From the NCBI GenBank assembly GCA_019752815.1, contig JAIELQ010000007.1, forward strand, positions 40,922 to 104,921: a stretch of 64,000 bases of DNA. Reading direction: 5' to 3'. Shown here piece after piece: positions 2-60,400 of this stretch. A program made the position numbers and the translations under genes. Below the pieces are notes generated by a model, which did not search any database, was not told the DNA's origin, and saw only the letters and a program-made list of their open reading frames with translations. This DNA comes from Patescibacteria group bacterium. GTDB taxonomy: Bacteria > Patescibacteriota > Minisyncoccia > Phycocordibacterales > UBA918. Within the stretch, counting starts at the first letter, position 1, and the number at the start of each line of letters is the position of its first letter.

Positions 2-1747
2 ACGACACTGTCTGTTGATGAGCGTATTGAAGATTTGCTTGCGCAAATGACCATGGCAGAAAAGATTGGGCAGATGGCGCTGGTGGAGAAAAATAGTCTG
101 TCTGATGTGGGCGATATTGCAACCTATGGACTAGGAGCAGTGTTAAGTGGTGCGGGAGCAAAGCCAGAAGATAATACGGTTGAAGGTTGGAGTGAGATGA
201 TTGCCGGGTTCCAAACCGAAGCAAAAAAATCACGATTGCAAATCCCTTTGCTCTATGGGGTAGATGCCGTTCATGGTCATGCCATGATTCCAAATGCCAC
301 TGTGTTCCCGCACCAGATTGGTCTCGGGGCAACGGGGGATGCGGATTTGGTGCAGGCGATAGGTGAAGCAACTGCCAAAGATTTGGTGACGTCGGGAGTG
401 AATTGGAACTATGCTCCCAATCTCGATTTGCCCATCGATATTCGCTGGGGGCGAATGTATGAAGCGTTTTCTGATGACCCTTTACTGACTGCTCGGTTAG
501 GAGCGGCGTACGTTCGCGGATTGCAGGCGACATCAACTACAGGAAAAATTCCAGTACTGGCAACCTTGAAACATTTCACCGGCGTTGGTTCGATGCAATG
601 GAATAGTTCTCTCAATAAAAATTATAAACTGGATCAGGGGGTCACCGAAGCCGACGCAAAATTACTCCAGTCAACTTATTTACCGCCGTTTAAAGCGGCG
701 ATTGATGCAGGTGCTCTGTCTGTGATGATTGGGTTACATATGTGGGGTGACGGTAAAATGATCGCCAACAAAGATATCATCACCGGAGAATTAAAAAATA
801 ATTTAGGCTTTACCGGATTTGTTGTATCAGACTGGTACGGACTGTATGAAAATGCAGGCAACAAATTTATGGCTACTGTCCGGGGTATCAATGCTGGGGT
901 TGATATGGTGATGTTACCGTTTGATTATCGAACCTTTATTCGCCATATGACCTGGGCTAATCGATTGGGGTTGATTTCGGATAGTCGCATTGATGATGCG
1001 ACAAGACGAATCTTGCGCGCTAAGTTCACGCTCGGATTATTTGATGGTGATATGACGGTGTCACCGGTATTAGCGCAACATCGAGAATTGTCACGCCAAG
1101 CCGTAGCACAGTCTCTCGTATTGCTTAAGAACGATGTAAAGGTGTTGCCACTACAGCCAACCGTTTCGCATATACGCGTGGCTGGAAGTGCTGCTGACAA
1201 TATTGGGTTGCAGTCGGGAGCCTGGACTGTAGAGTGGCAGGGGGTTGATGGTAACTGGCTCCCGGGTGCCACCTCGATTCTGGACGGTATTAAAAAACAG
1301 GTATCACTAAACACAAATGTTGAATACAGTCTTACGGGAGAGTTTATAACGGCGGTTAAAAAAGTACCCCTGGGGATTGCGGTTGTGGGTGAAACACCAT
1401 ATGCCGAAGGTTGGGGTGATAGAGAGTATCCGATTTTATCAAATGAGGATTTAACAGCGATAAAAAATCTACAAGCGTCCTGTGATAACGTCGTGGTAGT
1501 GATTGTGTCTGGGCGCCCACTATTAATTGCCAATGAAGTAGGCAGTTGGGATACGTTGGTCGCTGCGTGGCTACCTGGAACTGAAGGCATTGGTGTGGCT
1601 GATGTATTGTTCGGAAAGAAACAATTTATGGGCACATTGCCAGTACCGTGGCCAGCTTCCTCCGAGCAATTACCTATGACTCATACCGGAGAAACGGCTG
1701 ATGGTACGCCCGTGCTGTTTCCTCGATACACGGGGCTCGCATATTAA
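2..1747 (+). CDS. Glycoside hydrolase family 3 beta-glucosidase (BglX-like), 5'-partial; reading frame is open to the window start
   Basis: The frame is open from nt 2 (TTLSVDERIEDLLAQMTMAEKIGQM...). GH3 hallmarks are present: KHF.G, the GFVVSDW catalytic Asp region, and a C-terminal beta-sandwich domain. About 570 aa are visible. Confidence 0.85.
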   Translation, partial: TTLSVDERIEDLLAQMTMAEKIGQMALVEKNSLSDVGDIATYGLGAVLSGAGAKPEDNTVEGWSEMIAGFQTEAKKSRLQIPLLYGVDAVHGHAMIPNATVFPHQIGLGATGDADLVQAIGEATAKDLVTSGVNWNYAPNLDLPIDIRWGRMYEAFSDDPLLTARLGAAYVRGLQATSTTGKIPVLATLKHFTGVGSMQWNSSLNKNYKLDQGVTEADAKLLQSTYLPPFKAAIDAGALSVMIGLHMWGDGKMIANKDIITGELKNNLGFTGFVVSDWYGLYENAGNKFMATVRGINAGVDMVMLPFDYRTFIRHMTWANRLGLISDSRIDDATRRILRAKFTLGLFDGDMTVSPVLAQHRELSRQAVAQSLVLLKNDVKVLPLQPTVSHIRVAGSAADNIGLQSGAWTVEWQGVDGNWLPGATSILDGIKKQVSLNTNVEYSLTGEFITAVKKVPLGIAVVGETPYAEGWGDREYPILSNEDLTAIKNLQASCDNVVVVIVSGRPLLIANEVGSWDTLVAAWLPGTEGIGVADVLFGKKQFMGTLPVPWPASSEQLPMTHTGETADGTPVLFPRYTGLAY

Positions 1748-3790: not shown

Positions 3791-3890
3791 AAATAGAGTC
3801 AGTCCTAGGCGCACAAGGAATTTAGGTCGAGGCGTACATCTGTACGATGAGGCATAAATTTCCGCAGTGCAACAACGGAATGAACTATTT
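3791..3890 (-). repeat. Family-B MITE/REP-like element (copy 2, inverted relative to copy 1)
   Basis: The reverse complement reads ttccgttgttgcactgcggaaattt...catcgtacagatgtacgcctc...ccttgtgcgcctaggactgactc, which is collinear with the 14753-14866 copy. Confidence 0.6.
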
Positions 3891-9962: not shown

Positions 9963-10694
9963 ATGCGTACCCTCATCTTTGATATCGAAACAGTAGGGGA
10001 AGTATGGGAAGATTTTGATGAGGTAACACAACGTGTGTTAACCAGATGGATTGATCGTTCAGTAAAAAATAATGAGGAACGTGATTTGCAACTCAAGGAT
10101 TTGCGTGAGGGCTTAGGTTTCTCACCATTGACTGGTCACATAGTTGCAATTGGGGTTTATGATTTAGAGAGATCGCAAGGTGCGGTGTATTACGTTGGTA
10201 ACGGTAATGAAGTCGACGATGAGGTGGGAGATTTTATCTACAAGAAGCGAACCGAAGCAGAAATGCTGCAAGAGTTCTGGGACGGTGCACGTGAATACGA
10301 CACATTTGTCACATTTAATGGTCGATCGTTTGATATCCCGTTTATTAACCACCGCAGTGTAGTCCATCGGATTACACCCAGTCGGGAACTAATGAAATAT
10401 CGGTACCTTTCTCAACAATCGGCACCATATCATATTGATTTACAAGATGAGCTCACCTGGTATGGGGCGATGATCAAGCGCCCAAGCCTGCATTTATTTT
10501 GCCGTGCCTATGGTATCACGAGTCCTAAAGGTGACGGTATTAGTGGTGATGATGTTGCAGGATTGTTTGCTCAAAAAAAGTTCCGCGAGATTGCGCAGTA
10601 TAATACCCGTGATGTAGTTGCGACTAAGGAGTTGTATGAGTTATGGTTCAAAAATTTAGCTCCCACGAGTTTTCTTAATATGCTTGATTTTTAA
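9963..10694 (+). CDS. RNase H-like 3'-5' exonuclease domain protein (YprB/PolB-exo-like)
   Basis: MRTLIFDIETVGE is exo motif I with DxE. FNGRSFDIPF is motif II, and there is a C-terminal Y...D region. Confidence 0.6.
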   Translation: MRTLIFDIETVGEVWEDFDEVTQRVLTRWIDRSVKNNEERDLQLKDLREGLGFSPLTGHIVAIGVYDLERSQGAVYYVGNGNEVDDEVGDFIYKKRTEAEMLQEFWDGAREYDTFVTFNGRSFDIPFINHRSVVHRITPSRELMKYRYLSQQSAPYHIDLQDELTWYGAMIKRPSLHLFCRAYGITSPKGDGISGDDVAGLFAQKKFREIAQYNTRDVVATKELYELWFKNLAPTSFLNMLDF

Positions 10695-11811: not shown

Positions 11812-12444
11812 ATGAAATCAATCCTGGCGTTATTGGCAGATTTTGCAAATGGAATTTTTGCGGTATTGATTGCCTGTGCAGTCTACGACATATCACCTCA
11901 ATGGTGGTATTTTTTAATCGGGTTGCCACTGGCGATGTTGCCAGACATTGATGCGATTCCAGAGTTGTTAAAACGGGGGAGAGTTAGTAGTGATGCAAGC
12001 TATACACGTGATCATAGAACATTTTTACATTACCCAATTATCTCTGTCGTTATCTTCACACCGGTATTTTTATATGGTGGTTTTTGGGGTTTGGTGGTGG
12101 TACTGGCTGTGTTGCTCCATCTACTCAACGATTTGTACGGGACAGGCTGGGGGTTGCAGCTTCTATGGCCGCTATCTACCCGACACTACAAATTTTTTGG
12201 TCGTCGGGCCAATCGATTGCGGTCAATGTTGGCTGACGGTGGGTATTTGCAGGAGCTTCCTATAGAAGAAACAAAATTACGTTTTATGGTGTCATGGTCA
12301 AAAGCCGAATTGGCAGATTATATTACCCGATTTGGGGTGGATAATTGGATTATTCATTGGTATTTGCGACCTAATTGGGTGTCTGTGGTAGAGTATTCAT
12401 TATTCCTGATAGCCACAACGCTGATGATTGTAAGTCTTGTTTAA
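11812..12444 (+). CDS. Membrane-bound metal-dependent hydrolase (DUF457/YdjM-like)
   Basis: Polytopic protein with HRTFLHYP and LLHLLNDLYGTGWGLQLLWPLS, as in the DUF457 family. Confidence 0.5.
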   Translation: MKSILALLADFANGIFAVLIACAVYDISPQWWYFLIGLPLAMLPDIDAIPELLKRGRVSSDASYTRDHRTFLHYPIISVVIFTPVFLYGGFWGLVVVLAVLLHLLNDLYGTGWGLQLLWPLSTRHYKFFGRRANRLRSMLADGGYLQELPIEETKLRFMVSWSKAELADYITRFGVDNWIIHWYLRPNWVSVVEYSLFLIATTLMIVSLV

Positions 12445-12446
12445 CT

Positions 12447-12578
12447 ATGAAAAAAACATTTCCCGAAGGATTTTATTGGGGTGAGAAAGTGCATAGGTAC
12501 TTTCGCAAGACCTTGCCTAGTATTTTTGTAAAAAATACTGACAAGGTGTACAGCTTCTGTAAGAAGGGCCACTTTTAA
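12447..12578 (+). pseudogene. Duplicated 5' end of the GH1 gene. The first 12 codons (MKKTFPEGFYWG) are fused to element-derived sequence, giving a 43-aa ORF.
   Basis: The 35-nt string atgaaaaaaacatttcccgaaggattttaYtgggg occurs at both 12447 and 12582. The family-A repeat sits between the two copies. Confidence 0.5.
12481..12570 (+). repeat. Family-A structured intergenic repeat (copy A1)
   Basis: gtgagaaagt-hairpin-ctttcgcaaga-hairpin(tttttgtaaaaaa)-tgtacagcttctgtaagaag. Collinear with the copies at 49763-49844 and 52072-52157. Confidence 0.65.
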
Positions 12579-12581
12579 CAT

Positions 12582-13808
12582 ATGAAAAAAACATTTCCCG
12601 AAGGATTTTACTGGGGATCGGCTACGGCAAGTTACCAAGTCGAAGGAGGTATTGAAAACACTGATTGGGCCCAAGCTGCCCGTGAAGGTCGCGTGCCAGA
12701 ATGTGGCGTTGCCTGTGAACACTTCACCCGTTATGAAGCCGATTTTGATTTAGCCAAGGAATTGGGACACACTGCCCATCGGTTGTCGGTTGAGTGGGCG
12801 CGCATTGAACCAGTGCCGGGTGAATTTGATTCGCAAGCAATTGCACACTATAGGCGGGTACTCGAGGCGCTACATGCTCGTAAACTAAAACCCTATGTAA
12901 CAATTTGGCATTTCACCCAGCCGTTATGGTTTAGTGAGAAAGGTGGTTTTGAACAAAAAAATGCCCCGCAAATTTTTGCTCGGTACAGTGCGCATGTGGT
13001 ACGAGAATTGGGGGATTTATGTGACCATTTTTCGACCATGAACGAACCAAATGTGTTTGCAAGTAATGGCTGGCTCCGCGGTTCATGGCCACCATTTAAA
13101 CGGTTTGCGATTACCGACATGGTGTCGATTACTAATTCCGGCAAGATGCTTGATTCCAAGGCTAGTAAAGGATTTAAACCACTTTTTTTGTACTTCCGGG
13201 TGATGAAGAATTTAGCTCTGGCGCACAATGCGGCCTACCACGCAATTAAAAAAGTGTCTCCACAGACAGAAGTTAGTTTTGTGCATCATGTGATTGTATT
13301 TGATGCGAATTGGAATCCTTTTAATAAAATAAAAGCTTGGATTGCAAATTATATGTGGACGTATAAGTTTTTGAATCGCACAAAAAACTGCTGTGACTCC
13401 TTGGGACTTAACTACTATTTTTATACCCAATTTGGCGACAAGCGGGTGTGGCGCAAGACGGACATGGATTGGAACTTTGCGCCAGAAAAAATTGAGGTGG
13501 CGCTGTTGATGTTGGCCAAAACAAAGCTACCGTTGTTTGTCAGCGAAGGGGGTGTAGCTGATGCGGTCGATAGTATGCGGGCTGAGTATATCAAGCTTCA
13601 AGTTCTCGGTACCTGGCGCGCCATCCAACAAGGAGCTGATGTGCGGGGACATATGTACTGGTCCTTGTTGGATAACTACGAATGGGCGTTGGGGTTTGGG
13701 ATGCGCTTTGGATTGATTGCGGTTGATTATGAAAATCAAGTACGGACACCACGACCGTCTGCTTACGTGTATAAACAAATTTGTGAAAGCAATGCTGTAG
13801 TAGAATAA
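12582..13808 (+). CDS. Glycoside hydrolase family 1 beta-glucosidase
   Basis: FPEGFYWGSATASYQVEGG is the GH1 N-terminal signature. TMNEPN carries the acid/base Glu and FVSEGG the nucleophile Glu. Confidence 0.9.
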   Translation: MKKTFPEGFYWGSATASYQVEGGIENTDWAQAAREGRVPECGVACEHFTRYEADFDLAKELGHTAHRLSVEWARIEPVPGEFDSQAIAHYRRVLEALHARKLKPYVTIWHFTQPLWFSEKGGFEQKNAPQIFARYSAHVVRELGDLCDHFSTMNEPNVFASNGWLRGSWPPFKRFAITDMVSITNSGKMLDSKASKGFKPLFLYFRVMKNLALAHNAAYHAIKKVSPQTEVSFVHHVIVFDANWNPFNKIKAWIANYMWTYKFLNRTKNCCDSLGLNYYFYTQFGDKRVWRKTDMDWNFAPEKIEVALLMLAKTKLPLFVSEGGVADAVDSMRAEYIKLQVLGTWRAIQQGADVRGHMYWSLLDNYEWALGFGMRFGLIAVDYENQVRTPRPSAYVYKQICESNAVVE

Positions 13809-14752: not shown

Positions 14753-14866
14753 GCCTGAAAACGGCGTATTTCGTTGTTGCACTGCGTAAAATTTTGTTCA
14801 CCGTACGAAAAGTACGGCTCACGAAAATTTTACTTGTGCGCCTAGAACTACACTCGTTTTAAGGAC
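14753..14866 (+). repeat. Family-B MITE/REP-like element (copy 3)
   Basis: ctgaaaacggcg...cgttgttgcactgcgtaaaatttt...ccgtacgaaaagtacgg...aaaattttacttgtgcgcctagaactacactcgttttaagg. Both the terminal and the internal inverted repeats are present. Confidence 0.65.
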
Positions 14867-14927
14867 TTATCCAAAATTTAAAAAATACTATAAACCAGCC
14901 TGATATAATAATTATTAATAAAGATAT

Positions 14928-22681: not shown

Positions 22682-22708
22682 CTTTAACTTTAAAAAGTGA
22701 TCGATGGA

Positions 22709-22820
22709 CTTTCAGAAATGAGTGCAGTGCTAGGAGTGCAAGAAAATTTTATGGAGACGTACTGCTTGTACGGCGGAATAAAATTTTCGCAGCAACGACA
22801 ACGCAATGTGCCGTTTCTGG
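22709..22820 (-). repeat. Family-B MITE/REP-like element (copy 4, inverted)
   Basis: Nearly identical to the reverse complement of the 47328-47442 copy: ttcagaaatgagtgcagtgctaggagtgcaag...gacgtactgcttgtacggcgg...cgcagcaacgacaacgcaatgtgccgtttctgg. Confidence 0.7.
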
Positions 22821-22829
22821 AAGTTCACG

Positions 22830-45965: not shown

Positions 45966-46120
45966 TTCCAAAATTCATTCATTAGCTTCGTTGCCCTCAG
46001 CATTTTAAATCCTCATCGTACAAGAAGTACGACTCGGATCTAAAAGCTTCAGTGCCTCGCTTCTAAATAAATTTGTGAAACTAAAATACTATTCTTAAAA
46101 CGTATCATTAGAGTAGTTGG

Positions 46121-46256: not shown

Positions 46257-47315
46257 ATGATTCGCACCCTTTTTACTGCTCTGTTGTTTGCTTTTGTTTT
46301 GTTGCCGTCCCTTTCATTTGCGCAAAGTGATGCTGGGATTGGTCTTAAGCCAGCGAACATTGCTGAAAATATGGAGCCGGGTGAAGTGCGTCAATTTACG
46401 GTGCTTGTAGAAAACGTCAGTGGTCAGGATCAAAATTATTATATCTTCAAGCGAGATATTTCTGGAGTGCGAGACGGAGGGGTGCCAATTTTTGCTGATA
46501 ATAATTTGGATACCGGTGGATTTGCGTTAAGTGATTGGATACAACTTGAATCAGACAGACTCGAAGTAAAAGCTGGTGAGGAACGTGCCATGTCATTTAT
46601 TATGTCAGTGCCGCAAGATGCATCACCGTGTGATCACTTTGGCGGGATTTTTGTCTCGGCTGAACCCCCAGAATTAGAAGCGAGTGGTGCTGCTATCGGC
46701 TACCAAGTTGCCAACATTGTTAGTATTAGAGTAGCGGGTGAGTGTATTGAAAAAGCCCAGATTAGACAATTCTCAACCGACAATTATTTCTACGGTTCTT
46801 CAAATGTAGATTTTAATCTTAAGTTTGAAAATAGTGGTAACACACTCTTGCGACCAACTGGTCCCCTGACCATCACCAACATGTTTGGAAAACAGGTTGC
46901 CAATTTGACCTTTAACGAAGAGCAGGCAGGAGTATTTCCAGGTGTGACACGTGAGTTCTTGTTTAGTTGGACGAGTGACCAAACCGGCTTTGGACGGTAT
47001 GAAGCGATGGTGAGCCCGAGTTATGGAGAGGAAGGTTTCAAGCAAACCGCCTTTAGTACCGCAACGTTCTGGATCCTGCCGATGAATATTATTCTGCCGG
47101 CCGCAGGAGTGTTAGCCGCACTGCTTTTGATTGCCTATATCAGTATTCGTGTGTATGTGAAGCGACAGCTGGCGTACTACGGAGCAACCTCAGGAACTCG
47201 AAAACTAGTTCGTCGACACACCAACAATAGTTCAACACCGCTCTTGTTAATTCTAGTAGTGATGGTGTCGGTGACGGCTTTGTTCCTGCTCATCCTCCTA
47301 GCCCTATTCGCCTAG
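46257..47315 (+). CDS. DUF916/DUF3324-like (CscA-like) cell-surface protein with a C-terminal TM anchor
   Basis: Signal peptide MIRTLFTALLFAFVLLPSLSFAQS; two beta-sandwich-like domains (GIGLKPANIAENMEPGEVRQFTVLVENVSGQDQNYYIF...); C-terminal TM segment followed by a basic stretch. Confidence 0.45.
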   Translation: MIRTLFTALLFAFVLLPSLSFAQSDAGIGLKPANIAENMEPGEVRQFTVLVENVSGQDQNYYIFKRDISGVRDGGVPIFADNNLDTGGFALSDWIQLESDRLEVKAGEERAMSFIMSVPQDASPCDHFGGIFVSAEPPELEASGAAIGYQVANIVSIRVAGECIEKAQIRQFSTDNYFYGSSNVDFNLKFENSGNTLLRPTGPLTITNMFGKQVANLTFNEEQAGVFPGVTREFLFSWTSDQTGFGRYEAMVSPSYGEEGFKQTAFSTATFWILPMNIILPAAGVLAALLLIAYISIRVYVKRQLAYYGATSGTRKLVRRHTNNSSTPLLLILVVMVSVTALFLLILLALFA

Positions 47316-47327
47316 ACCTCCAGAAAT

Positions 47328-47442
47328 GGCACATTGCGTTGTCGCTGCCGCGGTACTTTTTCTTCCGCCGTACAGCGGTACGTCTACAGGAAAAGTCCTT
47401 GCGACTCCTAGCACTGCACTCATTTCTGAAGGTCTAGTTTGG
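47328..47442 (+). repeat. Family-B MITE/REP-like element (copy 5) with terminal inverted repeats cagaaatg/catttctg
   Basis: ccagaaatggcacattgcgttgtcgctgc...ccgtacagcggtacg...cttgcgactcctagcactgcactcatttctgaagg. Confidence 0.7.
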
Positions 47443-47917: not shown

Positions 47918-47982
47918 GCTGGTTTTAATGGCGGGAAAGTGGTTAGTTATGTGCGGATATGGTACCGTACGGCTGTATTAAT

Positions 47983-49509
47983 ATGGATAAGCAAAAAACT
48001 CTACAAAATATTCTAGTGCCTGCCACTCCGGCAGCATTTTTGTGGTTTATTACTAAACCATACATGTGGGGAGCCGCATTTACGGTACTTTTTACTATTG
48101 GATCTGCCGCAATGTCACAATCGCTAACACTATTTTTTAAATGGATTGTGGAAGCAATTGAAGCGCAAGATGTGAATTCTGCGTTGTGGTACGGTCTTAT
48201 GTTTCCAGTAGCGGTTTTTTTAGCACAAGTTTTAATGCGTCTGAGTAGTGTTATAGCGGCAATATATTGGTTTCCTTCCTCACGAAAATTTGCTAATGAC
48301 ACGTTGGTAAGCTATACCTTAAACCATAGTCATACGTACTTCTCAAACCGATTTAGTGGTTCATTGTTAACAAAGGTGAACAATGTTATCGGAGCGGTTG
48401 AGAGTTTGCTACACGATATTGTTTGGTCATATTTAAGTCTGGCTGTTTCACTCCTGCTGTCGTTTTATTTTATATGGACAGTTGACGTCATTGCAGCAAG
48501 TATTTTTGTTGTACTTATATTGTTCATAGTATTGGTAAATAAGATAATGTTACCAAAAAAGCGAATGTTATCTCGACAAACTGCTGCTGCCGGAAGTAAA
48601 ATGCGCGGGGCAATAGTGGATGTATTCGGAAATATGTCAGCTGTTAGACAATATTCTGCTCAAAGTGAAGAACGCAGTCAGTTGGCAAAGCTCAGTAACG
48701 ATTGGACAGTCCTTCAAAGAAAGAACTGGCTCTATACAGACCTTACCCAAGCTATCAATGCTGTTATTCTTTTTATCTGTGCAGGTACGATGTTTTACTG
48801 GTTGGTTTTGCGTTGGGAAGGAAATGAAATTACCTCCGCAGAATTCATTTTTGTACTTGCAATTATTGCTCAATTAACCGGGAATTTAATTTTTATTGGG
48901 AGAATGATGGTAAATGCTGCTCGTGTGGCTGGTGAAATGGAAGAGGGGTTAAAGGAACTTATTGTTCCGTATGAAATTACTGATTCAGAAGCAGCGTCAA
49001 AACTTATTGTGCAAAATGGCAGAATAAACGTACGCGACGTTTCGTTTGAGTATGAAAATAATAAAGTATTTACTGATTTTAATCTCAACATTGAATCAGG
49101 GCAACGGGTGGGTCTGGTCGGCGCTTCGGGGGCGGGGAAGTCGACATTTGTGTCGCTCTTATTACGGCAACATGATGTAACGACGGGGGCCATTATGATT
49201 GATGGGCAAAATATTGCTGAAGTGACCCAGGACTCGTTACGCAATGCCATTGCAGTCGTGCCGCAAGAGCCAGCGTTATTCCACCGTTCAATTCGAGAAA
49301 ATATAGCCTACGGGAAACCAGACGCTACTCAAGAAGAGATAGAAGCGGTGGCGCGTAAGGCCCAGGCACATGATTTTATTGTCACGTTACCTCAAGGGTA
49401 CGATACGTTGGTGGGTGAGCGGGGAGTAAAGTTATCAGGTGGTCAAAAAACAACGAGTAGCAATTGCGCGAGCAATGCTAAAAGATGCTCCGATTCTGGT
49501 ATTGGATGA
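47983..49509 (+). CDS. ABC exporter (MsbA-like fused permease-ATPase), N-terminal 5/6 of a gene split by a frameshift
   Basis: Six-TM permease domain followed by an NBD: Walker [13 protein letters not shown] and signature LSGGQK. The frame then breaks in an A6 run at 49445-49450. Confidence 0.8.
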
Positions 49510-49756
49510 AGCTACTTCAGCGCTTGATAGTGAAAGTGAGGTTGAAATCCAAAAGGCGCTTCATATATTAATGAATGGCAAAACGGTAATTGCAGTAGCT
49601 CATCGCCTGTCGACATTGCGGGAGATGGATCGAATTATTGTGTTGGAAAATGGGAAAATTATCGAAGACGGCACCCACGAGACCTTAAAAGATGCTGGTG
49701 GTACGTATTCCAAGCTATGGAGTCATCAGGCAGGCGGGTTTATCAATGAAAAATGA
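49439..49756 (+). CDS. ABC exporter, C-terminal NBD fragment (Walker B / D-loop / H-loop)
   Basis: [26 protein letters not shown], then AHRLST. This continues the LSGGQK of the upstream ORF in another frame. Confidence 0.75.
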
Positions 49757-49762
49757 GCTACA

Positions 49763-49844
49763 GAGTGAGAAAGTCTGCGAGACTTTCGTAAGAGGTTGCC
49801 AGCTTTTTTTGTAAAAAACGATAACCTGAACCGTTTCTGTAAGA
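49763..49844 (+). repeat. Family-A structured intergenic repeat (copy A2)
   Basis: gtgagaaagtctgcgagactttcgtaagaggttgccagctttttttgtaaaaaacgataacc...gtttctgtaagaag. Confidence 0.7.
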
Positions 49845-49903
49845 AGTAGCGACAATGGCGAATTTTGTTCCGAGTTTACCCCTTCATAGGGTAAACTCCT
49901 GGA
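49845..49903 (+). repeat. M2 hairpin module (copy a), followed by a degenerate partial copy at about 49953-49974
   Basis: tagcgacaatggcgaattttgttccgagtttaccccttcatagggtaaactcctggaac. Confidence 0.7.
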
Positions 49904-50041
49904 ACTTGTACTTGTGCTGATTTTATACCACTTCACCATCTAACTGAACTATTAACGACAATGGTGAATTATGTTCCAAAACTGCATATATATGTACACA
50001 AGAATGAAAAATTGAGGTCAGTACACGGTACAATATAGGTA

Positions 50042-51955
50042 ATGAGCGCTTTTCCGTATGCGTGGTTTCTCAGAGCCAGTCTAGTGTTGGTTGTTATTTT
50101 TTGTGCGATTATGGTAGTGCCTGATTTGTCGTGGGCCCGCAATATCCAGGAGTACAAAAACACGATTTCTAATTCAGGTCCGGAGCAGCCGAGTAACCAC
50201 ACGTTATCGTTTACGTTAACTACAGCAGTTAGCCCTGGTGCCTATATGGAATTCATTCCGCCTGCCGGATTTGAAACATTAAATTCACCTAATTTTAGCG
50301 AACGGAATGTTGAGTTGATTATAAACGGTGTGTCTCGTTCGGCTGGTGCAGTTCAAACTGCTACGGACGATATGGTAGAAATTTTCCCTGGTGCACCAGG
50401 GATGGTACGGTACACATTAAACACCAGTACCGGTATTTCATCGGGGTCTTCAATACAGTTTAAAGTTGGAAATCATACAACTGATGCGGTACCACTCGTG
50501 TTCACGTTTTCGCCAGGTTTTGGAACTTCATCATCCCCGCTTGATATTAAGCCTATAAAAAATAGTGCAGATACTGGTACACATTCAGTTGATTTTAAAA
50601 TCTATGATGGAGGAGTGGTGGCTGATGCTGGTTTTGTAATTGCGATTGTTGATGGCGTGGGTGTGGGGCCGGCAGATACCACTGAGGAAGTACCGCCACA
50701 ACGTTTTAATGGAGCACCGGCAAATTTTGTTGGTGGTACGACCCAGTCAGTTGAAGTTTCTTTAGAGACCGATGAGTTTGCTGTTTGTAAATTTTCTTCT
50801 TCAACCGGTGTTGACTACAGCGCGATGACGAGTACGTTTACCAATACCGGTACGATTTTCCATACGCGAATTGTTCCAGTTAATCCACAAACTACCTACA
50901 GCTTTAATGTGCGCTGTATTGACGATGAAGGAAACTTTAACATTGACGATTATCTTATTGAATTTTTGGTTGGTGCTATTCCAACCGGTACACCAACAAC
51001 GACTGGTTCCACTACCGCTGCCGGATCGGGTTCGGGTACTGGTACCGGCGGTTCTGGTTCAGGGTCGGGTTCTGGTAATACTACAAGTGGATCAAACGGT
51101 TCAGGTGGAACACCAGGTAGTCAAACTGGTAGTGGCGGTACGGGCGGCGGTGGCGGTGGCGGTTCTGGTGGCGGTTCGGGCGGCGGTGGCGGCGGTGGTT
51201 TTGAAAGTACCGATGGCCCGTACCGGAGTGGAGATGGACAGGTAACTATTACCGGATTTACAGCACCCCGCAGTGCAGTAGCTTTTTTGGTTGACGGAAA
51301 AATTGCTAAAACCGCTACTGCTGGTGGTAACGGTGAATATACGGTTGTGCTTGATTTAATAGCGCGCGGTGCGTACACGTTCGGGGTGTATTCAACTGAT
51401 GCTGCCCGAGTTAAAACATCTACGTTTAGTACTTCGTTTACGGTTACCGGTGCTCGGGCATCAAACCTCTCGAACATTATGATACCGCCTTCAATTCTTG
51501 TTAGTCCCGATCCGGCGACACCTGGTTCTCCGATTACTATTTCTGGGTACACACTCCCTAATGCTACGGTCACTCTTGAAAACGAAAAAGACGGTAGTGC
51601 TGCGTCACGAAAAGTATTTACCGGGACCTCTAATGCTAGTGGTGCTTATAGTATTTCTGTTGACAGTAATGGTTTTACAAATGGCACTTACAAGGTACGC
51701 GCAAAAGCTGTGCAGGCGTCGGGGCTACAGACAAACTTTTCCAACTACACACTGTATGGTGTAGGCGAAGCTGCTAACCGAGCATTAAACACTGATCTTA
51801 ATCGAGATGGAAAAGTGAACCTTGTCGACTTTTCGATTTTGCTTTTCTGGTGGGGAACAGCTGGCGGAGATTCAAACCCTCCAGCAGATATTAACAGTGA
51901 TACGAGAGTTAACTTGACGGACTTTTCTATCCTGCTCTTTAACTGGACCGGATAA
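50042..51955 (+). CDS. Secreted multidomain protein with a Gly/Ser/Thr-rich linker, Ig-like repeats and a C-terminal type-I dockerin repeat pair
   Basis: Signal peptide/TM segment. The N-terminal domain is shared with the 44832 protein. The (GSGT)n linker is low-complexity. DLNRDGKVNLVDFSILLF and DINSDTRVNLTDFSILLF are dockerin DxNxDGxVNxxD Ca-binding repeats. Confidence 0.7.
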   Translation: MSAFPYAWFLRASLVLVVIFCAIMVVPDLSWARNIQEYKNTISNSGPEQPSNHTLSFTLTTAVSPGAYMEFIPPAGFETLNSPNFSERNVELIINGVSRSAGAVQTATDDMVEIFPGAPGMVRYTLNTSTGISSGSSIQFKVGNHTTDAVPLVFTFSPGFGTSSSPLDIKPIKNSADTGTHSVDFKIYDGGVVADAGFVIAIVDGVGVGPADTTEEVPPQRFNGAPANFVGGTTQSVEVSLETDEFAVCKFSSSTGVDYSAMTSTFTNTGTIFHTRIVPVNPQTTYSFNVRCIDDEGNFNIDDYLIEFLVGAIPTGTPTTTGSTTAAGSGSGTGTGGSGSGSGSGNTTSGSNGSGGTPGSQTGSGGTGGGGGGGSGGGSGGGGGGGFESTDGPYRSGDGQVTITGFTAPRSAVAFLVDGKIAKTATAGGNGEYTVVLDLIARGAYTFGVYSTDAARVKTSTFSTSFTVTGARASNLSNIMIPPSILVSPDPATPGSPITISGYTLPNATVTLENEKDGSAASRKVFTGTSNASGAYSISVDSNGFTNGTYKVRAKAVQASGLQTNFSNYTLYGVGEAANRALNTDLNRDGKVNLVDFSILLFWWGTAGGDSNPPADINSDTRVNLTDFSILLFNWTG

Positions 51956-51973
51956 AAAATGAGCCACAGAGCG

Positions 51974-52023
51974 TAGCGACAATGGCGAATTTTGTTCCGA
52001 GTTTGCTCCTTTCCTAGAGCAAA
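51974..52023 (+). repeat. M2 hairpin module (copy b) with compensatory stem changes relative to copy a
   Basis: tagcgacaatggcgaattttgttccgagtttgctcctttcctagagcaaactcctggaac. The stem acccc/ggggt of copy a is replaced by gctc/gagc here. Confidence 0.7.
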
Positions 52024-52071
52024 CTCCTGGAACCTGTACTCGTTGAGATGATATCTATTGATGTTTGAATT

Positions 52072-52157
52072 TTTCCTTGACCTTCTTACAGAAGCTGTGC
52101 ACTCATTGGATATTTTTACAAAATCTCTCAATGAGTCTTGCGAAGTGACATCGAGTC
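52072..52157 (-). repeat. Family-A structured intergenic repeat (copy A3, inverted)
   Basis: The reverse complement reads gtgagaagtgactcgatgtcacttcgcaagactcattgagagattttgtaaaaatatccaatgagtgcacagcttctgtaagaagg. Confidence 0.7.
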
Positions 52158-52324
52158 ACTTCTCACCTCGAATAGCACTCGTTTTAGAAACAATTACTAA
52201 CAAATTTAAACTGAGCTAAATATTTAAAACTAAAGAAGCGAAAAGATAAATTTTGTTTAGTTAAGTCTAAAGTTGTGGGTAACAGCAAGGTCATACATAT
52301 ATATGTACTATAATAATTAAAAGT

Positions 52325-54440: not shown

Positions 54441-54482
54441 ATAATGAGCCCCGTTTTCTATGTGCGTGGGTTTTAAAAAGTC

Positions 54483-57400
54483 GTGATACGTCCGTTTAAG
54501 TTACTAAAGAAATCGACCTTTGGAGCACTACTAACAATTACTGTTATTAGTGGTTTTGTCGTGTACGGAGCTTATATTGATCGGACAGTGTACACCACCG
54601 AACAACTAGTCATTATCCCTGGTAAAGTAACGTCAGATTCGTGGCTTGGTTTGGAATCAGTGTTAGTGCAAGATATTTCTGAATACTCTCTCTATCAAGA
54701 CTTTACACAAAAAAATTCAGCCTATATTTCAGAACTAGGATTGTTTTCAGCACAAGAGAGTGAGGATGCTCCAACACCGGATGAGCCAAATGAAGTGTCT
54801 ATTGATGGCGACTCTGCTTCAAGCAGTGACGAAGTTCCAAGTACTGACAGTGAGTCAGGTGGTTCAGAGAATGGTGACAATGAGTCGTCTGAGACTGATG
54901 CACCTACTGCTGAAACATCACAACCAGAACCAGAGTCTGAACCTGAACCACAACCAGAACCATCTTCTGAATCTGAGTCAGTATCATCAATTACAAATCC
55001 AGGAGATCCAGTATGGGGTGTATTTACGAAAACCAATAACCGCTTTTTGTTGGCGCAGGCGATTGTGACTGAAGAAGCTTCTGAACCTGAACCTGCTTCT
55101 TCACCAGAACCTGAACCAGCGGTCGTGACTACAGAAGAGTCAGGTACCGAAGAGACTGCTGTAGTGGACAATGTGCCAGTAGCTGAAGAGACTCTTGAAA
55201 CTGCTGTCACTGAAGAATCAGTGGAGACTACACCGGAAGGTAGTGGGGCAACTAATGAAGGTGAAGAAGCAGAAATTCCTGTCAGCGAATCAATTGAGGG
55301 TCAATCTGAGGCAGAGCCTGCAACAGAAGAAGATACAAGTAACGATTACGTGATGGCACCGTGCGATCCTGCAAGTGGATGTGCAACCCATAGTATGTTG
55401 TTCTCTGATTTCTTGATGCCGGATTTTGACGGTGGTACTGTTCTAGATTCAATTCAACTGCGGTTATCACTGGCCGCACAAACAAAACAAAATCGTGGAG
55501 AAGGGCCACAACGTTTTTTGGTTGAGTACACATACGACACTAGTACAACGTCTACCGACTGGATTACTGCTTCTGTACTAGATATTGATGATGAAATCAG
55601 TAACAGTATTAACGGCGGATATTACCTGCTCTCATTACAGCCGCCAAAAACTGCAGGTGAGATTGCTAACTTACAAATTAAAGTTTCCTATCAAGGGAAT
55701 GTGAGCGATTTGGAAACAGCCTACGTTGAAGGCATGTGGCTCGAAGTTACTTCAGGTAAGTTTTTTGAAGAGGGAGCTGGTGAAGCGTATAGTGATGAAG
55801 TAACCTACGGTCGTGATTTGTTGGCGCCAGAGCTTAACACATTAAACAACGCTGATCTCGATCCAACATTGGGGACGTTGCCACAATTTACACTCTCCTA
55901 TGATCCGCAACAAGGATTCTTTAACCGTATTTTTAGAACACTATTTTCAGAGAACACATTTGTTGTCGAGCGTATCAATTTAACAGATAGTAATGGTGAT
56001 GCTATTGAAGTGCCATTTGGAATTGAGTATCACGACAATGAAACATGGACTATGAAGGCGCAACAAATGCCTCATAAATTACGACCGGGTAAATACCTAG
56101 TGACTGTTGATATTCTAGAAAATGAAGAACGATATACTGATACGTTTGAATTTTACTGGGGGGTATTGGCAGTCAATACCAAGAAAAGTATGTATTTCCC
56201 CAATGAGGAAGTCCAACTCAATCTCGCAGCCTTAACTGACAAGGGCGATACTATTTGTAACGCTAATTTGGAACTTAAGATTATCGATCCCAAAGGAACT
56301 ATTACTGAAGTACCTGTCAATCAGTCAGGTGCATGTGGGCCAAATAACGTCACCGATATCCCAGACTACATTGCTGAATTCTCCAATACTGGAGAATGGG
56401 GTGCATACACTATTCAATTGCAGCATAAAAATGCCTCAGGAGAAGTTGTGCATAAAATTTCTGATAGTTTTGAAGTTCGTGATTACATTCCATATGATAT
56501 TGAGCGCACTGCACCAACACGTATTTATCCACCTGCCCCCTACGATGTAACGCTAAAAGTAAAAGCATATCGTGATTTTACGGGTGATGTTACCGAGCGT
56601 GTCCCGCGTGGGTTTGTAATTGAAGGTCTTGAAGGAGCTTTGGTCAGTACCTTGCCGGAGTACACATTAATTACCTGGCCGGATGTGACAATGATGGAAG
56701 GTGATGAGCGAACCTTCTCATATAATTTTGATGCCCCTGACATCAGTCCGTACATGTATCTCCTGGGGCCACTTGATATGGATGGGTTTAGTGAATTGCG
56801 TCAATGGCAGGTGGCTTCTGATGCGTTAAATAACATCGGCTGGTTTACCGGTACACGCACGGTAGCTAGTTCCAGTTTAAATACCGCTCCGAGCCCAATG
56901 CAGTGGTCAACCAGTTCAATTGATAATTATTACTACACTCACTCTACCTCTTCTGATTCGCAACGAGTGACTTTACGACAAAGTGGTGATTATTTAGTGT
57001 CAGTTAACCTCCCGCAACAGCGAGCCGATATTAATGTTAGTCGCACTCGGGCTGCTATTGAAGTTCGAAAAAACGGTGTTGCCGTTCCGGAAGGTTTAGG
57101 TCGCAGTGGTTACATTACGGGAGGTAACGGCGCAGTGCACTCGGAGTCATCCTCCAACGTTTCGTTTTTGATGACGGGAGTTACCGCTAACGATTATATT
57201 GAGATATTTGTTGAGAATCTCACTACAATTGATGCGGGGGATGTGATTAATGTCAGTGGATTAGCTTCAATGTATATTGAGTATTTGCGACCTACGGAAA
57301 CAGTGTTTGCCGCTACCACTACCAGAACAACAAACTCTACAAATTTTAACCAAGTTACCGCTTTTCCTCTTGAGTGGATTGAAACACGTCAAGATGCTGG

Positions 57401-60400
57401 ATTCTCTCACTCAAATACCATAACACCACAAAATATCACCCTGACTGCAACAGGTACGTACATGGTTCATGTAAACCTGCCGTTACAACATACAAATGCC
57501 CAACAAAACATTGCCGGGCGCATCTTGCTTGATGGTGCAGTTGTAAGTGGCGGTCATTTTGGTCAGGGATTTTCGGACGGGAATGCAAACGAAAGTGATG
57601 GGGACTCCAGTATTCATTTCTCGGGTGTTATCATCGCTACGTCAACTAATCAAGTCCTTACAGTAACAGCTGCGCGCGAGGGTAATACTGGAACAACAAC
57701 TGTGCCTGCAGGGTTTACTGGTTCGATAGTTATTCAAAAATTACCAACCTCAGGTGTTATTGCGTTGCGGGGACGGGATTTGGTAGGTGGTACAAACTGG
57801 AACTCAGCTGTTGCTTCATCAACCAGGTTCAATACACAATTAGCATACGACAATAGTGTTTTTACTCATTCAACAACTACTAATAATCACCAGATTACTG
57901 TTAACCAGAGTGGAGATTATATTTTGAATTTCACTGACGCTGTTACCTCAGCGACACAATTCGTAAACAATAGAATTACTGTCTCAGTAGGAAGTACAAC
58001 TGTTACCGGTGCACAATCCAAATCAAACTTCTTGCGTAACTTAAATGCTGCCAATGAAGCGTCCACCAACCTGGTTTTCCTCCTGGAGAATGTGACAGCT
58101 GGTCAAATAATTACGGTAAATTCACAACAAGAAGGAGCTGCCGGCACTATCAGTACAACGACTGATGCCACGTTATTGTTGTGGAAAAAAGCAGATTTAA
58201 ACTTCCGGGCAATAGCACCAACAATGTTTGCAACTCCGTTTGATAATGCGCGCTTTGCATCCACTACTCCTTGGTTTGATTTTCAAAGTAACGATCCTGA
58301 TGGTTCGTCTGATATAGAATATGAATTTTCGATTTCAACATCGTCTGATTTTGCAACTGCGACTATTCGAGTTTCGGGTACTGATGCCGGCTTCTCAAAT
58401 ACAGCCTCAACTTCGGATACGTCACCATTTGTAGAGGCTAATCGCGTACGGTTCCAACTTCAGCCTGCAGATACACTGACTGACCTTACAACGTATTACT
58501 GGCGTGTTCGAGCACGAGATGTGAGTGGTTCTGGTGAGTTTGGGGACTATTCTACAACCCAAAGTTTCTCTATTAATACCGGAGATACGGTACCGAATTG
58601 GTATCAAACGCTTTCAGGTCAATTCCAAACCAACTCGTTGTTTGGCGCTATTTCAAATGATCTGGAAAATAACGTTAGAGTAAACTCAACAGTTAGTTCA
58701 GAAATAATGGTGGCGTACGGCGATAGTACTAGTGCAACACCAAAGTACCGATTGTGGGGTGGTACGAGTTGGGGGATTGAACAGTCTGCGATCAGTGTTT
58801 CGGGTACGATTAACTGGGTACGGTTGGCTTCTGGTGTGAAGCGAGATGAATATATGCTCGTAACGCTAGATCAAAGTAATGACACCTTTGCGCAGGTATA
58901 CAATGCCACGTCTTCAACGTGGGGCAGCAGAACATTGCTCGCTGACAACGTGGCTGATGTAACTCGTCGCGGTATTGCTGTTGGGTATGAGAGTGTCTCG
59001 GGAGACGCAATGGTTGTATCTTGTGATAACACAAAAAATCCGGTATATCGTATTTGGAATGGTAGTACTTGGTCTGCAACTACCAGTATTACAACGGTCG
59101 TCACTGGAGTGTGTAACTTCCTTGAGTTAGCTTCTGACCCAGCATCAGATGAGATGATTTTGGTGGTGCGCGATAGTGGAGCAGCGATTGGAAACAACTA
59201 CGAAGCGTTGGTCTGGGACGGAAACGCGTGGGGTAATAGTCGTGTGTTTGGTTCGGTTCAGGCTGGGCAACTGTTGCGGGCTGGTATCGGTCTAAAATAT
59301 GAGTCGTCTGGTGACCAGGCGATGGTGGCGGTTACTAACGGTGGTAATAACAACTTTATTTATACAACCTGGACTGGTACTGGATGGACCAGTAATGCCA
59401 CTCAGCCACTCTTTAACGATTTCGAGTTCGGTACTCTGGTGTCTGATCCAAACTCGGACAAATTGACCCTTTGTTACATTAATGATAGTGCGCGTGTAGG
59501 TGCGGTACGGTGGGACGGTGGAGTTTGGTCGACATTTGTTGATTTATCAAACACCGGTAACTCTCAAGCGGGACGACCGATTGATTGTGAGTTTGAAACA
59601 ACTGCTGGCCGTTCAGGAAATATTTTAGCTACCTATTCGGATACTACCAATTTGCGCTACCAAGTATATGCAACCTCATCCTGGGGTGGGCAGCAAACAG
59701 TCACCGGAGTAGGTTCTGGGGCCGGGTTATTCTGGGTGCAAACCGAGCGGGCAGGGGATGGGACAATTGTAGCGCTCTCTCATGACGATGCGGTTGCCGG
59801 TGACGAGCTTGAGTCATCGTATTGGAACGGTACAAGTTGGTCTACCAAACAAGTAATTGCGCCTAATCCATCTTCAATTATCGGTGCTCCGTATGAGACT
59901 TTTGAAATGGCGGCCAAACGGTATCAATTTACTCAAGGAATTGTTACAACACAACCAATAACATTTACAAGTGTTTCAGGTCAGCCAACGTGGGGTGATT
60001 TGACGTTTAGTTCAACTGAACCATTCGGGACTGATGTGACAGTGCGCTTAAAATACACGAGCACGACAACATGTGATACCTATATCCCTAATGGTGTTTT
60101 GGCGGGTAATGGCACTGGTTTTGATACTGCGTCGCTACCGGTAAACTTAACTGCTCTTTCAACTACAACCTATAGTCAAATTTGTCTTGAGGCCACTTTG
60201 ACAACTTTTGGTTCGGCGAGTGCGTCTCTCGACGACTGGTCATTGTCATGGGTACGTAAACCAAAACTTACTCAAAATGCATTTCGCTGGTATGGTAACG
60301 GTAGTTTCCTGACTCCAACCGACCCGTGGCCACTTGGGGTACTTGATGTGCTCGAAAACACCGCACTTACCGCCAATGAGTCGGTAAATCTCAATGATGT

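Follow-up and report, generated by a model that had tools for sequence, protein, structure and literature searches.

The 64,000-nucleotide (nt) stretch of Patescibacteria DNA analysed here, referred to below as the window, carries a gene for a YdjM-family membrane protein followed on the same strand by a gene for a family-1 glycoside hydrolase (GH1), and the junction between the two is occupied by a copy of a short structured repeat, named family A, that lies between two copies of the GH1 start (Table 1). The genes adjoining the locus are ordinary genes by their Pfam assignments; the GH1 protein belongs to a 100% identical cluster in NCBI, and a homologue search places its homologues in the thousands, although the contig index has no exact entry for it. 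The direct repeat, tATGAAAAAAACATTTCCCGAAGGATTTTA[T/C]TGGGG, occupies 12446-12481 and 12581-12616 and is identical at 35 of 36 positions, the single mismatch being the T/C. When one indel is allowed (TTTAAC(A)TATG...), local alignment lengthens it on the upstream side to 41 nt, and hence the YdjM stop codon (TAA, 12442-12444) falls within the repeat. The upstream or orphan copy (X1) consists of TTTAACT, an ATG that begins 2 nt after the YdjM stop, and GH1 codons 2-12, with the G-run TGGGG at its end, and this 3' end coincides exactly with the 5' end of the element. The copies are spaced 99 nt apart, of which the element fills 12481-12567, and 5-14 nt separate its 3' end from the downstream copy (X2). 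Since X2 runs on without interruption into an intact GH1 gene, the insertion has spared that gene. From the orphan ATG at 12447, a leader open reading frame (ORF) passes through the element and ends at a TAA (12576-12578) situated 3 nt ahead of the GH1 ATG. The first-pass annotation of this DNA, made from the letters alone, had described a repeat with one mismatch at both positions, an intervening family-A element of about 90 nt (86-87 nt by our delimitation), a 43-amino-acid fusion ORF and a GH1 gene restarting downstream with its own ATG; the whole of this description was borne out, and all of its coordinates and sequences are correct.

Table 1. Features of the window discussed in the text (positions are those of the window; +, forward strand; -, reverse strand)
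Feature	Position	Strand	Basis or remark
Upstream gene, YdjM-family membrane protein	11812-12444	+	ORF list; Pfam PF04307, E 9e-12
X1, orphan copy of the YdjM-stop/GH1-start junction	12440-12481	+	Repeat search, 41-nt alignment
Relay (leader) ORF, 43 codons, MKKTFPEGFYWGEKVHRYFRKTLPSIFVKNTDKVYSFCKKGHF	12447-12578	+	ORF list
Family-A structured element, first copy	12481-12567	+	Fold, RNAalifold, covariance model (84.8 bits, E ~1e-15)
GCCAC, possible remnant of GH1 codons 14-15 (GCY ACN)	12568-12572	+	Comparison with GH1 +38 to +47
X2, functional downstream copy: TTTTAACAT, ATG, GH1 codons 2-12	12573-12616	+	Repeat search, alignment
Intact family-1 glycoside hydrolase (beta-glucosidase), 408 amino acids	12582-13808	+	Pfam PF00232, E 1e-69
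Family-A element, second copy	49765-49847	+	Motif pattern, covariance model; just past the ABC-transporter stop; no flanking duplication
Family-A element, third copy	52081-52166	-	Covariance model (97.3 bits); antisense to both neighbour genes
Family-D-like 5' half ahead of the third family-A copy	52167-52195	-	
Family D	14753-14870	-	
Family D	22707-22826	+	
Family D	47315-47434	-	
Family D, partial	3800-3885	+	
Family D, partial	~45990-46090	-	
Repeat module B	49846-49926; 49952-49990; 51973-52054		
Array [x][A][B]	49749-49926		
Array [x][B]	51957-52054		Paralogous site without A
ABC-transporter gene	47959-49756		Split into overlapping ORFs 47959-49509 and 49439-49756
ORF for a secreted-looking protein, 637 amino acids	50042-51955		Dockerin-like C-terminal repeat
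12-nt-period GGC/GGT repeat within that ORF	51132-51203		Long Gly/Ser-rich linker
Long open frame	54477-64000	+	At least 9.5 kb, at least 3174 codons; runs off the window end

Orthologous loci were collected through pattern scans, a GH1 homologue search and contig look-ups, and the material as a whole consists of the window and fetched loci of at most 14.6 kb each. Eight of the 13 sampled orthologs share the layout of an upstream GH1 start copy, the element and an intact GH1 gene (filled loci; percentages give GH1 amino-acid identity to the window): the window itself, L042 (95%), L001 of the Kaiserbacteria (87%), L030 (85%), L009 (85%), L050 (81%), L045 (80%) and L046/L047 (79%, two samples). 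The other five are empty, namely L048 and L049 (89%), L043/L044 (86%, two assemblies), L051 (78%) and L052 (76%), and the filled or empty state is polymorphic among close relatives. A YdjM gene also precedes GH1 in L001, L030, L042, L043, L048 and L049. In the empty YdjM-linked loci (L043, L048 and L049) its stop lies 3-4 nt from the GH1 ATG and is followed by a single ATGAAAAAAACATTTCC[C/T]GAAGGATT[T/C]TA[T/C]TGGGG, and the 36-41-nt repeat of the window is present as a single copy in L043, L044, L048 and L049. Because the empty sites hold the sequence once, it is host sequence that has been duplicated, and the allele of the window is an insertion allele. The start is duplicated in none of the five empty orthologs and in all eight filled ones, which lends support to the earlier proposal of a long target-sequence duplication tied to insertion. 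Units of start copy and element also occur in tandem, as in L042, where two of them stand ahead of the real gene, and the orphan start copy varies mostly at third-codon positions.

It had also been proposed that the assembler might have created the duplication, and one likely indel error or frameshift does exist elsewhere in the window (in an ABC-transporter gene, 49439-49509). However, the layout recurs at GH1 in seven further orthologous loci, drawn from independent samples and assemblies; the eight loci stem from different projects and assemblers, two samples (L046/L047) are identical in structure, L042 contains two units, and a 36-nt repeat whose copies start 135 nt apart is far shorter than a read and fits within a single short one. 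Together with lineage-specific substitutions in both copies, this replication of the layout excludes an assembly or sequencing artefact, the probability of which we regard as practically negligible. The feature is hence real and reproducible: one family-A copy resides in an insertion allele in which GH1 is preserved through duplication of 36-56 base pairs (bp) at its start and, probably, a relay ORF.

The element that has been inserted is a compact array of three hairpins. In the window copy, GTGAGAA leads into a first hairpin (P1, 12486-12503), which is followed by CGCAAGA, a long second hairpin with a GUAA apex (P2, 12511-12546), UGUACAG and a third hairpin predicted to fold as CUUC-UGUAA-GAAG (P3, 12554-12566). 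The three window copies have the same order of GTGAGAA, P1, CGCAAGA, P2 capped by UUUU-GUAA-AAAA, UG.ACAG and P3, while their stems differ in sequence with pairing preserved. The ends of the element (GTGAGAA... and ...CTGTAAGAAG) resemble a direct repeat (GTRAGAA) rather than an inverted one. A motif pattern drawn from this layout matches the three window copies (12502-12566 and 49785-49846 on the forward strand, 52082-52144 on the reverse strand), with no match expected by chance in 100 shuffles. RNAalifold recovered the three hairpins from 16 copies, with compensatory changes in 14 of 25 pairs, and among 54 distinct copies 96.7% of the cells are paired and 22 of the 25 pairs have changed on both sides; none of 500 shuffles did as well, and sliding the partner by 1-3 columns reduced pairing to 37-50%. 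Many pairs are G-U (one position pairs A with U in 34 sequences and G with U in 17), and the fold is therefore specific to the given strand. The loops and junctions are conserved, the three hairpins are distinct from one another, and the loops are of the GNRA type.

A covariance model of the family found 55 copies in about 300 kb of fetched Patescibacteria loci and only three in the 64-kb window. In a pattern scan of one genome per species, true copies turned up only in metagenome-assembled genomes of Patescibacteria (Kaiserbacteria, Paceibacteria, Saccharibacteria and unclassified members), and metagenome contigs also hold copies; the pattern matches in L003, L007, L012, L015, L021, L022, L033 and L038, where neither the 5' GTGAGAA nor P1 is present, were discarded as chance. 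The element pattern had no match among viral contigs, and hence there is no evidence for a phage origin. Rfam gave no match at gathering thresholds over the whole window, and in the interval 12380-12680 searched at E<=10 the best match (E 0.3, 17 bits against a 95-bit threshold) was at chance level. Nor was a description of family A found in the literature on repeats and miniature inverted-repeat transposable elements (MITEs) in the Candidate Phyla Radiation (CPR), and a report of group I introns in the transfer RNA (tRNA) genes of Patescibacteria makes no mention of such repeats or partial duplications (PMC13011429). Family A is thus apparently an undescribed structured repeat that is Patescibacteria-wide. 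All but one of 44 copies are intergenic, and their orientation with respect to the adjoining genes is nearly random (42 same, 33 opposite); copies are often clustered, tandem, head-to-head, nested or truncated; inverted doublets (L001, L009, L025 and L028) are not the rule. Orientation, clustering and truncation point to an interspersed mobile or recombinogenic repeat, as opposed to a fixed cis-regulatory leader.

The association with duplicated flanks is not peculiar to GH1. In a test comparing 120 nt upstream with 400 nt downstream at a score of at least 16, applied to those family copies with enough flank, direct duplications were detected at 16 of 53 copies (about 30%), as against 3% of 600 random positions, and 11 of these 16 have an upstream copy whose end coincides exactly with the 5' border of the element. 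The duplicated sequence comes from the 5' part of a tRNA-Tyr gene in L016 (26 nt) and from the 5' part of a tRNA-Thr gene in L020 (31 nt, in three copies), with the junction after GGTAGAG in both; in L041, where the element is antisense, it is the last 80 nt of a ComM/YifB-like gene, and an 11-nt inverted flank copy lies beside it. At GH1 and in L016, L020, L025, L028 and L041 the element has the orphan copy directly at its 5' end and the intact gene on its 3' side, L029 being the exception to this order. The 5' junctions are G-rich (after TGGGG, GGTAGAG or GGAGGGGG) and resemble the usual flank of the family, (GGGG)TGAGAA. Other copies are simple insertions: the second window copy, at 49765, replaces 2 nt (CG) relative to the empty paralogous site at 51957-51975, and 2 nt are likewise replaced inside a partial tRNA-Ser copy beside the intact gene (L029) and in a copy of the 5S ribosomal RNA (rRNA) gene (L025). 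The window also shows microhomology (TGTAAG, in the YdjM end) at the 3' junction, which is not general across loci.

Several observations concern the RNA genes at these loci in their own right. The tRNA-Tyr(GTA) gene of L016 (~200-330, reverse strand), missed by ARAGORN, has a long insert past its anticodon loop CTGTAAA that would fit the group I introns reported for tRNA genes of Patescibacteria (PMC13011429). The first 520 nt of L025 (1-520) form a degenerate 5S rRNA array with one intact copy, one copy split by family A in the loop B/helix III region and a further one present as a 16-nt fragment beside another A copy. A scan for tRNA and transfer-messenger RNA genes found none in the window, and in the fetched loci family-A copies cluster around tRNA and 5S genes.

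At GH1, the element lies within, or terminates, a partial duplicate devoid of function and about 42-56 bp in length, which comprises the YdjM stop, the GH1 ATG and codons 2-12, possibly extending to codon 15. How this duplicate arose is the least certain part of our account, in which duplication and insertion would be the product of the same event. The 3' end at the G-run TGGGG, which matches the preferred 5' flank of the family (GGGG/TGAGAA), would prime the copying of another element copy, and synthesis would then resume upstream, probably through a break- or nick-primed copy with a template switch. The exact and motif-specific 5' junction, the variable length of the repeats (20-80 nt) and the inverted flank copy in L041 favour such a single event. 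The alternative is a two-step process, in which a short tandem duplication comes first, nearly neutral because its short ORF would still couple translation, and the element then inserts at its preferred G-run target in the redundant upstream copy, the sole site at which it would do no harm. This sequence of events, which we hold to be unlikely, draws on the fact that most family copies are simple insertions with no duplication, and on indications that the element lies within partial copies and not at their end. The partial tRNA-Ser copy of L029 carries it internally beside an intact gene, the sequence past the element in L016 resembles a tRNA anticodon arm, and L025 has several 5S copies of which two have been struck. 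In the GH1 loci, the remnants GCCAC, GCTAC and AGCTAT look like GH1 codons 14-15. When the sequences that follow the element in the eight loci (GCCAC, GCTAC, GGCAAC, AGCTAT, AGCAAT...) are set against GH1 +38 to +47, the similarity extends over 5-6 nt only; it is suggestive only, but if GCCAC is indeed a GH1 remnant, the pseudo-copy would span approximately -11 to +47 with the element inside. On the other hand, the two-step process requires two rare events at many different genes, the intermediate with a duplication and no element is seen in none of the five empty GH1 orthologs whereas all eight filled ones have the duplication, and the exact coincidence of 11 of the 16 upstream copies with the element end is what one concerted event predicts.

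A broader interpretation of the single event would make family A a selfish element that homes to G-rich motifs in conserved genes and co-duplicates the adjacent gene terminus. Its targets would be GGTAGAG in the D-arms of tRNAs, a G-run in 5S rRNA and, in GH1, the codons for FYWG; the broken end of the target would prime insertion, with another element copy as the template. The host would be spared with no need for splicing or for an integrase and att site, because an intact copy of the gene would always be regenerated 3' of the element and, in protein-coding targets, the relay ORF would restore translation. We consider this a minority possibility; if true, the flanking repeats would endow a selfish element with built-in means of amplification, precise loss and transfer by transformation.

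Whatever its origin, the insertion allele does not follow the history of the gene that it precedes. The window and L009 elements are identical at 85 of 87 positions (98%), whereas the GH1 coding sequences (CDS) are 75% identical; for the window and L042 the relation is reversed (element 73%, GH1 CDS 86%), and L045 and L001 again share a similar element (94%) ahead of more divergent genes (73%). The element subtype is incongruent with the GH1 tree. In L046 and L050, moreover, the upstream copy has a native-looking start (ATGATTACTGACAAGAAATTTCC..., encoding MITDKKFP[E/A]GFYWG) with a -10-like box ahead of it, and both the spacer and the downstream start belong to the MKKTFPEGFYWG type, which occurs in the YdjM-linked clade. 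Incongruence and these mixed start types imply that the allele has moved between lineages or has been re-created, and we infer repeated gain or lateral exchange. Uptake of DNA and subsequent recombination, either homologous or over short homology, would be the most economical vehicle; Saccharibacteria have been shown to be naturally competent, and conservation of com genes extends across the CPR (PMC10633639).

The same data can be read as the work of a homology-guided cassette. Here the element, a short spacer and the copy of the GH1 start would loop out together, through recombination of the two start copies with each other, and re-integrate in the same or another genome after DNA uptake, through recombination within the conserved 23-47-nt stretch coding for FPEGFYWG, and the element would effectively carry a replacement gene start, much as a replacement gene end is brought along by integrative elements that target tRNA genes. 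The native upstream copy of L046 and L050, with its own promoter-like -10, next to a downstream copy and spacer of the MKKTFPEGFYWG/AGCAAT type of L030-like genomes is what such a cassette would leave behind, and the incongruent trees, the tandem amplification in L042 and L020 and the documented competence all agree with it. Yet ordinary allelic transfer by transformation yields the same pattern, and the cassette would account for spread and not for origin; gene fragments are absent from most family copies, steric constraints would make a double-stranded circle of about 140 bp difficult to form, and no recombinase was found in the material. We deem the cassette unlikely. A related suggestion in the first-pass annotation, that the element can regenerate a functional start, is mostly wrong in this clade, where the duplicated start is the host's own and most family copies are devoid of such sequence. 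In L046 and L050, however, the downstream start is of a foreign type and evidently came with the element by recombination.

The insertion separates YdjM and GH1, which in the empty state are already stop-start coupled. In all eight filled loci, an ORF of 39-51 codons extends from the orphan start through the element in the frame GGU-GAG-AAA. Its stop lies 2-4 nt ahead of the GH1 ATG in the window, L030, L009, L045, L046 and L001; in L042 the first leader ends 3 nt ahead of the second orphan ATG and the other leader 20 nt ahead of the GH1 ATG, and the leader of L050, read from sequence, is also open through the element. The ORF is kept despite element lengths of 84, 87 and 96 nt and 36 extra nt in L045. 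The frame is open in 8 of 8 GH1-linked copies compared with 8 of 36 others (Fisher p=7e-5, a value inflated by the limited independence of the GH1 copies, which represent only about four element lineages). This suggests that the open frame at the GH1 copies is a selected translational relay, that GH1 is probably still translated by way of this small reading frame, and that only insertions leaving an open relay frame would survive at the site. Ribosomes would start at the orphan ATG and cross the element in its one remaining open frame; terminating 3 nt short of the real ATG, they would then re-initiate on GH1. The relay would unfold the hairpins and bring terminating ribosomes to the true ATG, and the original stop-start coupling would become a two-step relay. 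The element as a peptide-coding module was considered and rejected, for the frame is open in only 14 of 44 unique family copies and the compensatory changes in the stems alter the peptide.

A different view of the conserved leader is that the element is mainly a functional cis-acting RNA, that is, a leader controlling stability or translation of GH1, with the duplication and the leader ORF kept for regulation and mobility a secondary matter. Conserved loops and junctions, covarying stems and a strand-specific fold are to be expected of such an RNA, as are the maintenance of the leader ORF and its stop position across subtypes of differing length, the third-position bias of changes in the orphan copy and the presence of the arrangement in eight of 13 orthologs. 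Conservation of the encoded peptide, nonetheless, follows trivially from nucleotide conservation, five orthologs do without the element, no promoter- or terminator-like site was found within it, and copies occur in either orientation, often antisense (e.g. 52081-52166), and nested, truncated, in tandem or inside tRNA and 5S pseudo-copies. We regard a primarily regulatory RNA as quite unlikely, and the earlier idea of a 5' regulatory insertion is not borne out by data that instead support a relay ORF keeping translational coupling.

Taken as a whole, the account that we favour, and consider reasonably probable, is that of a family-A insertion allele within a partial junction duplicate, in which the duplication was made together with the insertion, the allele then spread among lineages by natural transformation and homologous recombination, and a relay ORF maintains expression of GH1. 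Family A itself would be a mobile or recombinogenic element. Besides the limited independence of the GH1 copies, several findings weigh against this account. Some 70% of family copies have no flanking duplication and the copy at 49765 is a simple insertion, so that a long duplication does not go with insertion of necessity. Elements found inside decayed partial gene copies (the tRNA-Ser of L029, the 5S array of L025, and possibly L016 and the GCYAC of the window) fit a pre-existing duplication equally well, and the different types of the two start copies in L046 and L050 mean that these were not made in situ there. Neither terminal inverted repeats nor a poly-A tail nor a target duplication of fixed length was found for family-A copies, and no mobilising enzyme was identified in the window and the fetched loci. 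Finally, the loci were gathered by an exact motif pattern, and the sample is biased towards conserved copies.

The closest precedent for the GH1 allele is a class of insertions with long target duplication, in which repeats of more than 30 bp, variable in length, are single-copy in the empty allele and no mobile-element genes are present (PMC2853133). These insertions are known mostly from naturally competent species and their mechanism is unknown; the repeats allow tandem amplification and may overlap gene ends so that the gene survives, as in a 46-bp repeat overlapping 15 bp of a gene 3' end, and the insert, protein-coding and of kb scale, is presumed to act by breaking DNA (PMC2853133). The GH1 allele shares the repeats of more than 30 bp that are single in the empty allele, and its insert of 86-99 nt contains no transposase, integrase or other mobile-element gene, its only ORF being the read-through leader. 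It differs in that the inserted unit is an 86-nt non-coding, structured and multi-copy repeat with a preference for G-rich 5' junctions, and in that only about 30% of its copies are accompanied by a duplication.

A more distant likeness is to tRNA-targeting integrative elements, which also leave a partial gene copy on one side and a reconstituted gene on the other. Classic integrative elements reconstitute the 3' half of the tRNA gene, and insertion sequences of the IS1630/IS1634 type generate long, variable direct repeats. For family A, the duplicated part is the one upstream in the orientation of the element, that is, the 5' part of genes on the same strand (tRNA-Tyr, tRNA-Thr and GH1) and the 3' part of genes on the opposite strand (the ComM-like gene and the L028 tRNA). 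The repeats of 20-80 bp are within the range of att-core identities and of the direct repeats of IS1630, which measure 19-26 bp (PMC2853133). Unlike in those systems, no integrase or transposase lies in or near the 86-nt element, and most copies have no repeat.

In its general properties, family A resembles the interspersed structured repeats of bacteria, namely REP/BIME/REPIN, ERIC, Correia, RUP/BOX and RPE (reviewed in PMC3184786). Like them, it is short, multi-copy, intergenic and hairpin-forming, occurs in either orientation, is often clustered or nested and shows presence/absence polymorphism, and such repeats are sometimes co-transcribed with operons. By contrast, it has no terminal inverted repeats, no TA or other fixed short target duplication and no GTAG-type REP head, and it is tied to partial duplicates of gene ends and folds into three distinct hairpins. 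Membership in REP/BIME/REPIN, defined by an imperfect palindrome of some 20-40 nt with a conserved 5' tetranucleotide, frequently arranged in inverted doublets, was rejected for a unit of 86 nt with three different hairpins in which inverted doublets are not the rule. The family is small, non-coding, multi-copy and polymorphic at orthologous GH1 sites, as MITEs are, but a strict MITE was discarded as well, given the lack of terminal inverted repeats and the occurrence of either a 2-nt replacement with no duplication or variable duplications of 20-80 nt. As to the relay ORF, the mycobacterial interspersed repetitive units (MIRUs) that Supply et al. described in 1997 reportedly lie between operon genes and carry small ORFs that abut or overlap the flanking stop and start codons with coupling preserved, and the Rickettsia palindromic elements (RPEs) of Ogata et al. 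(2000) are said to be structured repeats staying in frame within coding sequence. Family A is MIRU-like at the GH1 loci only, where, in the window, 2 nt separate the YdjM stop from the leader and 3 nt the leader from the GH1 ATG. Unlike in MIRUs and RPEs, the frame is open only where needed (8/8 at GH1 and 8/36 elsewhere) and the relay begins at a duplicated gene start; unlike MIRUs, there is no variable-number tandem repeat behaviour save for the two or three units in L042 and L020.

Four further mechanisms were examined and dismissed. A guide-RNA arrangement, with the upstream copy as a guide on a scaffold in the manner of omega RNA or tracrRNA, conflicts with the absence of an adjacent nuclease gene, with the lack of a matching flank at most copies and with flanks of up to 80 nt; target-primed reverse transcription, with the lack of a poly-A or consistent 3' tail. 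The 3' extension has a terminator-like end only in L025 and L037, of which L025 proved to be a 5S array. A diversity-generating retroelement does not agree with a T/C mismatch, a repeat at the 5' end of the gene and no reverse transcriptase domain among ten neighbouring ORFs. An element of 86 nt is too small for a self-splicing (group I or II) or archaeal-type intron and matches no intron model, and excision at its borders would not restore the host, since the element replaces 2 nt relative to empty sites (L029 and L025).

Family A is not the only structured repeat in the window, where it is outnumbered by a second family of about 120 nt, family D, one copy of which lies just downstream of the YdjM-GH1 operon. 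Family D has a covarying closing stem (GACYTTCAGAAAYG ... CGTTTCTGGAAGTY), a conserved GAGTGCAGTGCTAGG(A/C)G..CAAG, an inner hairpin around GTAC....GTAC and a conserved GCAG(C/T)(G/A)ACAACG(C/A)AAT, and found no Rfam match at gathering thresholds in the window. Family-A copies often have a family-D-like 5' half (CAGAAA[C/T]GAGTGCA.T.C.AG) ahead of them, as does the third copy of the window and as do those in L002, L008, L010 and L027, and in L027 the matching 3' half is located further downstream. Family A thus appears to insert into family D and to give rise to composite or nested elements. A third repeat module, B, reads TAGCGACAATGGCGAATTTTGTTCCGAGTTT.C.CC...GG.AAACTCCTGGAAC with a covarying inner hairpin, and follows family A in the array that includes the second copy. 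Of the protein-coding features nearby, the ABC-transporter gene is split by a frameshift in its conserved LSGGQ-Walker B region, which reflects either a sequencing indel or a pseudogene, and the long open frame that runs off the window, with internal repeats (59034/63459 and 62190/62982), presumably encodes a giant surface protein. A PolB-exo/RNase-H-like gene is located at 9963-10694.

Patescibacteria genomes, of about 1 Mb, are usually called streamlined and repeat-poor. The analysis conducted here indicates that they nevertheless carry a widespread and structurally constrained repeat family, with at least one more in the same window. Pseudo-starts, odd short ORFs and tRNA fragments, which confuse the annotation of these genomes, find an explanation in family A, and the covariance model built here can be used for a census of the family and for a search for its mobilising enzyme. 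Its recurrent link to the partial ends of tRNA, 5S rRNA and protein-coding genes provides a tractable natural system for the study of insertion with long target duplication in competent bacteria. More generally, the relay ORF suggests, as far as can be judged from its sequence, how an operon may absorb a highly structured insertion with its translational coupling kept.

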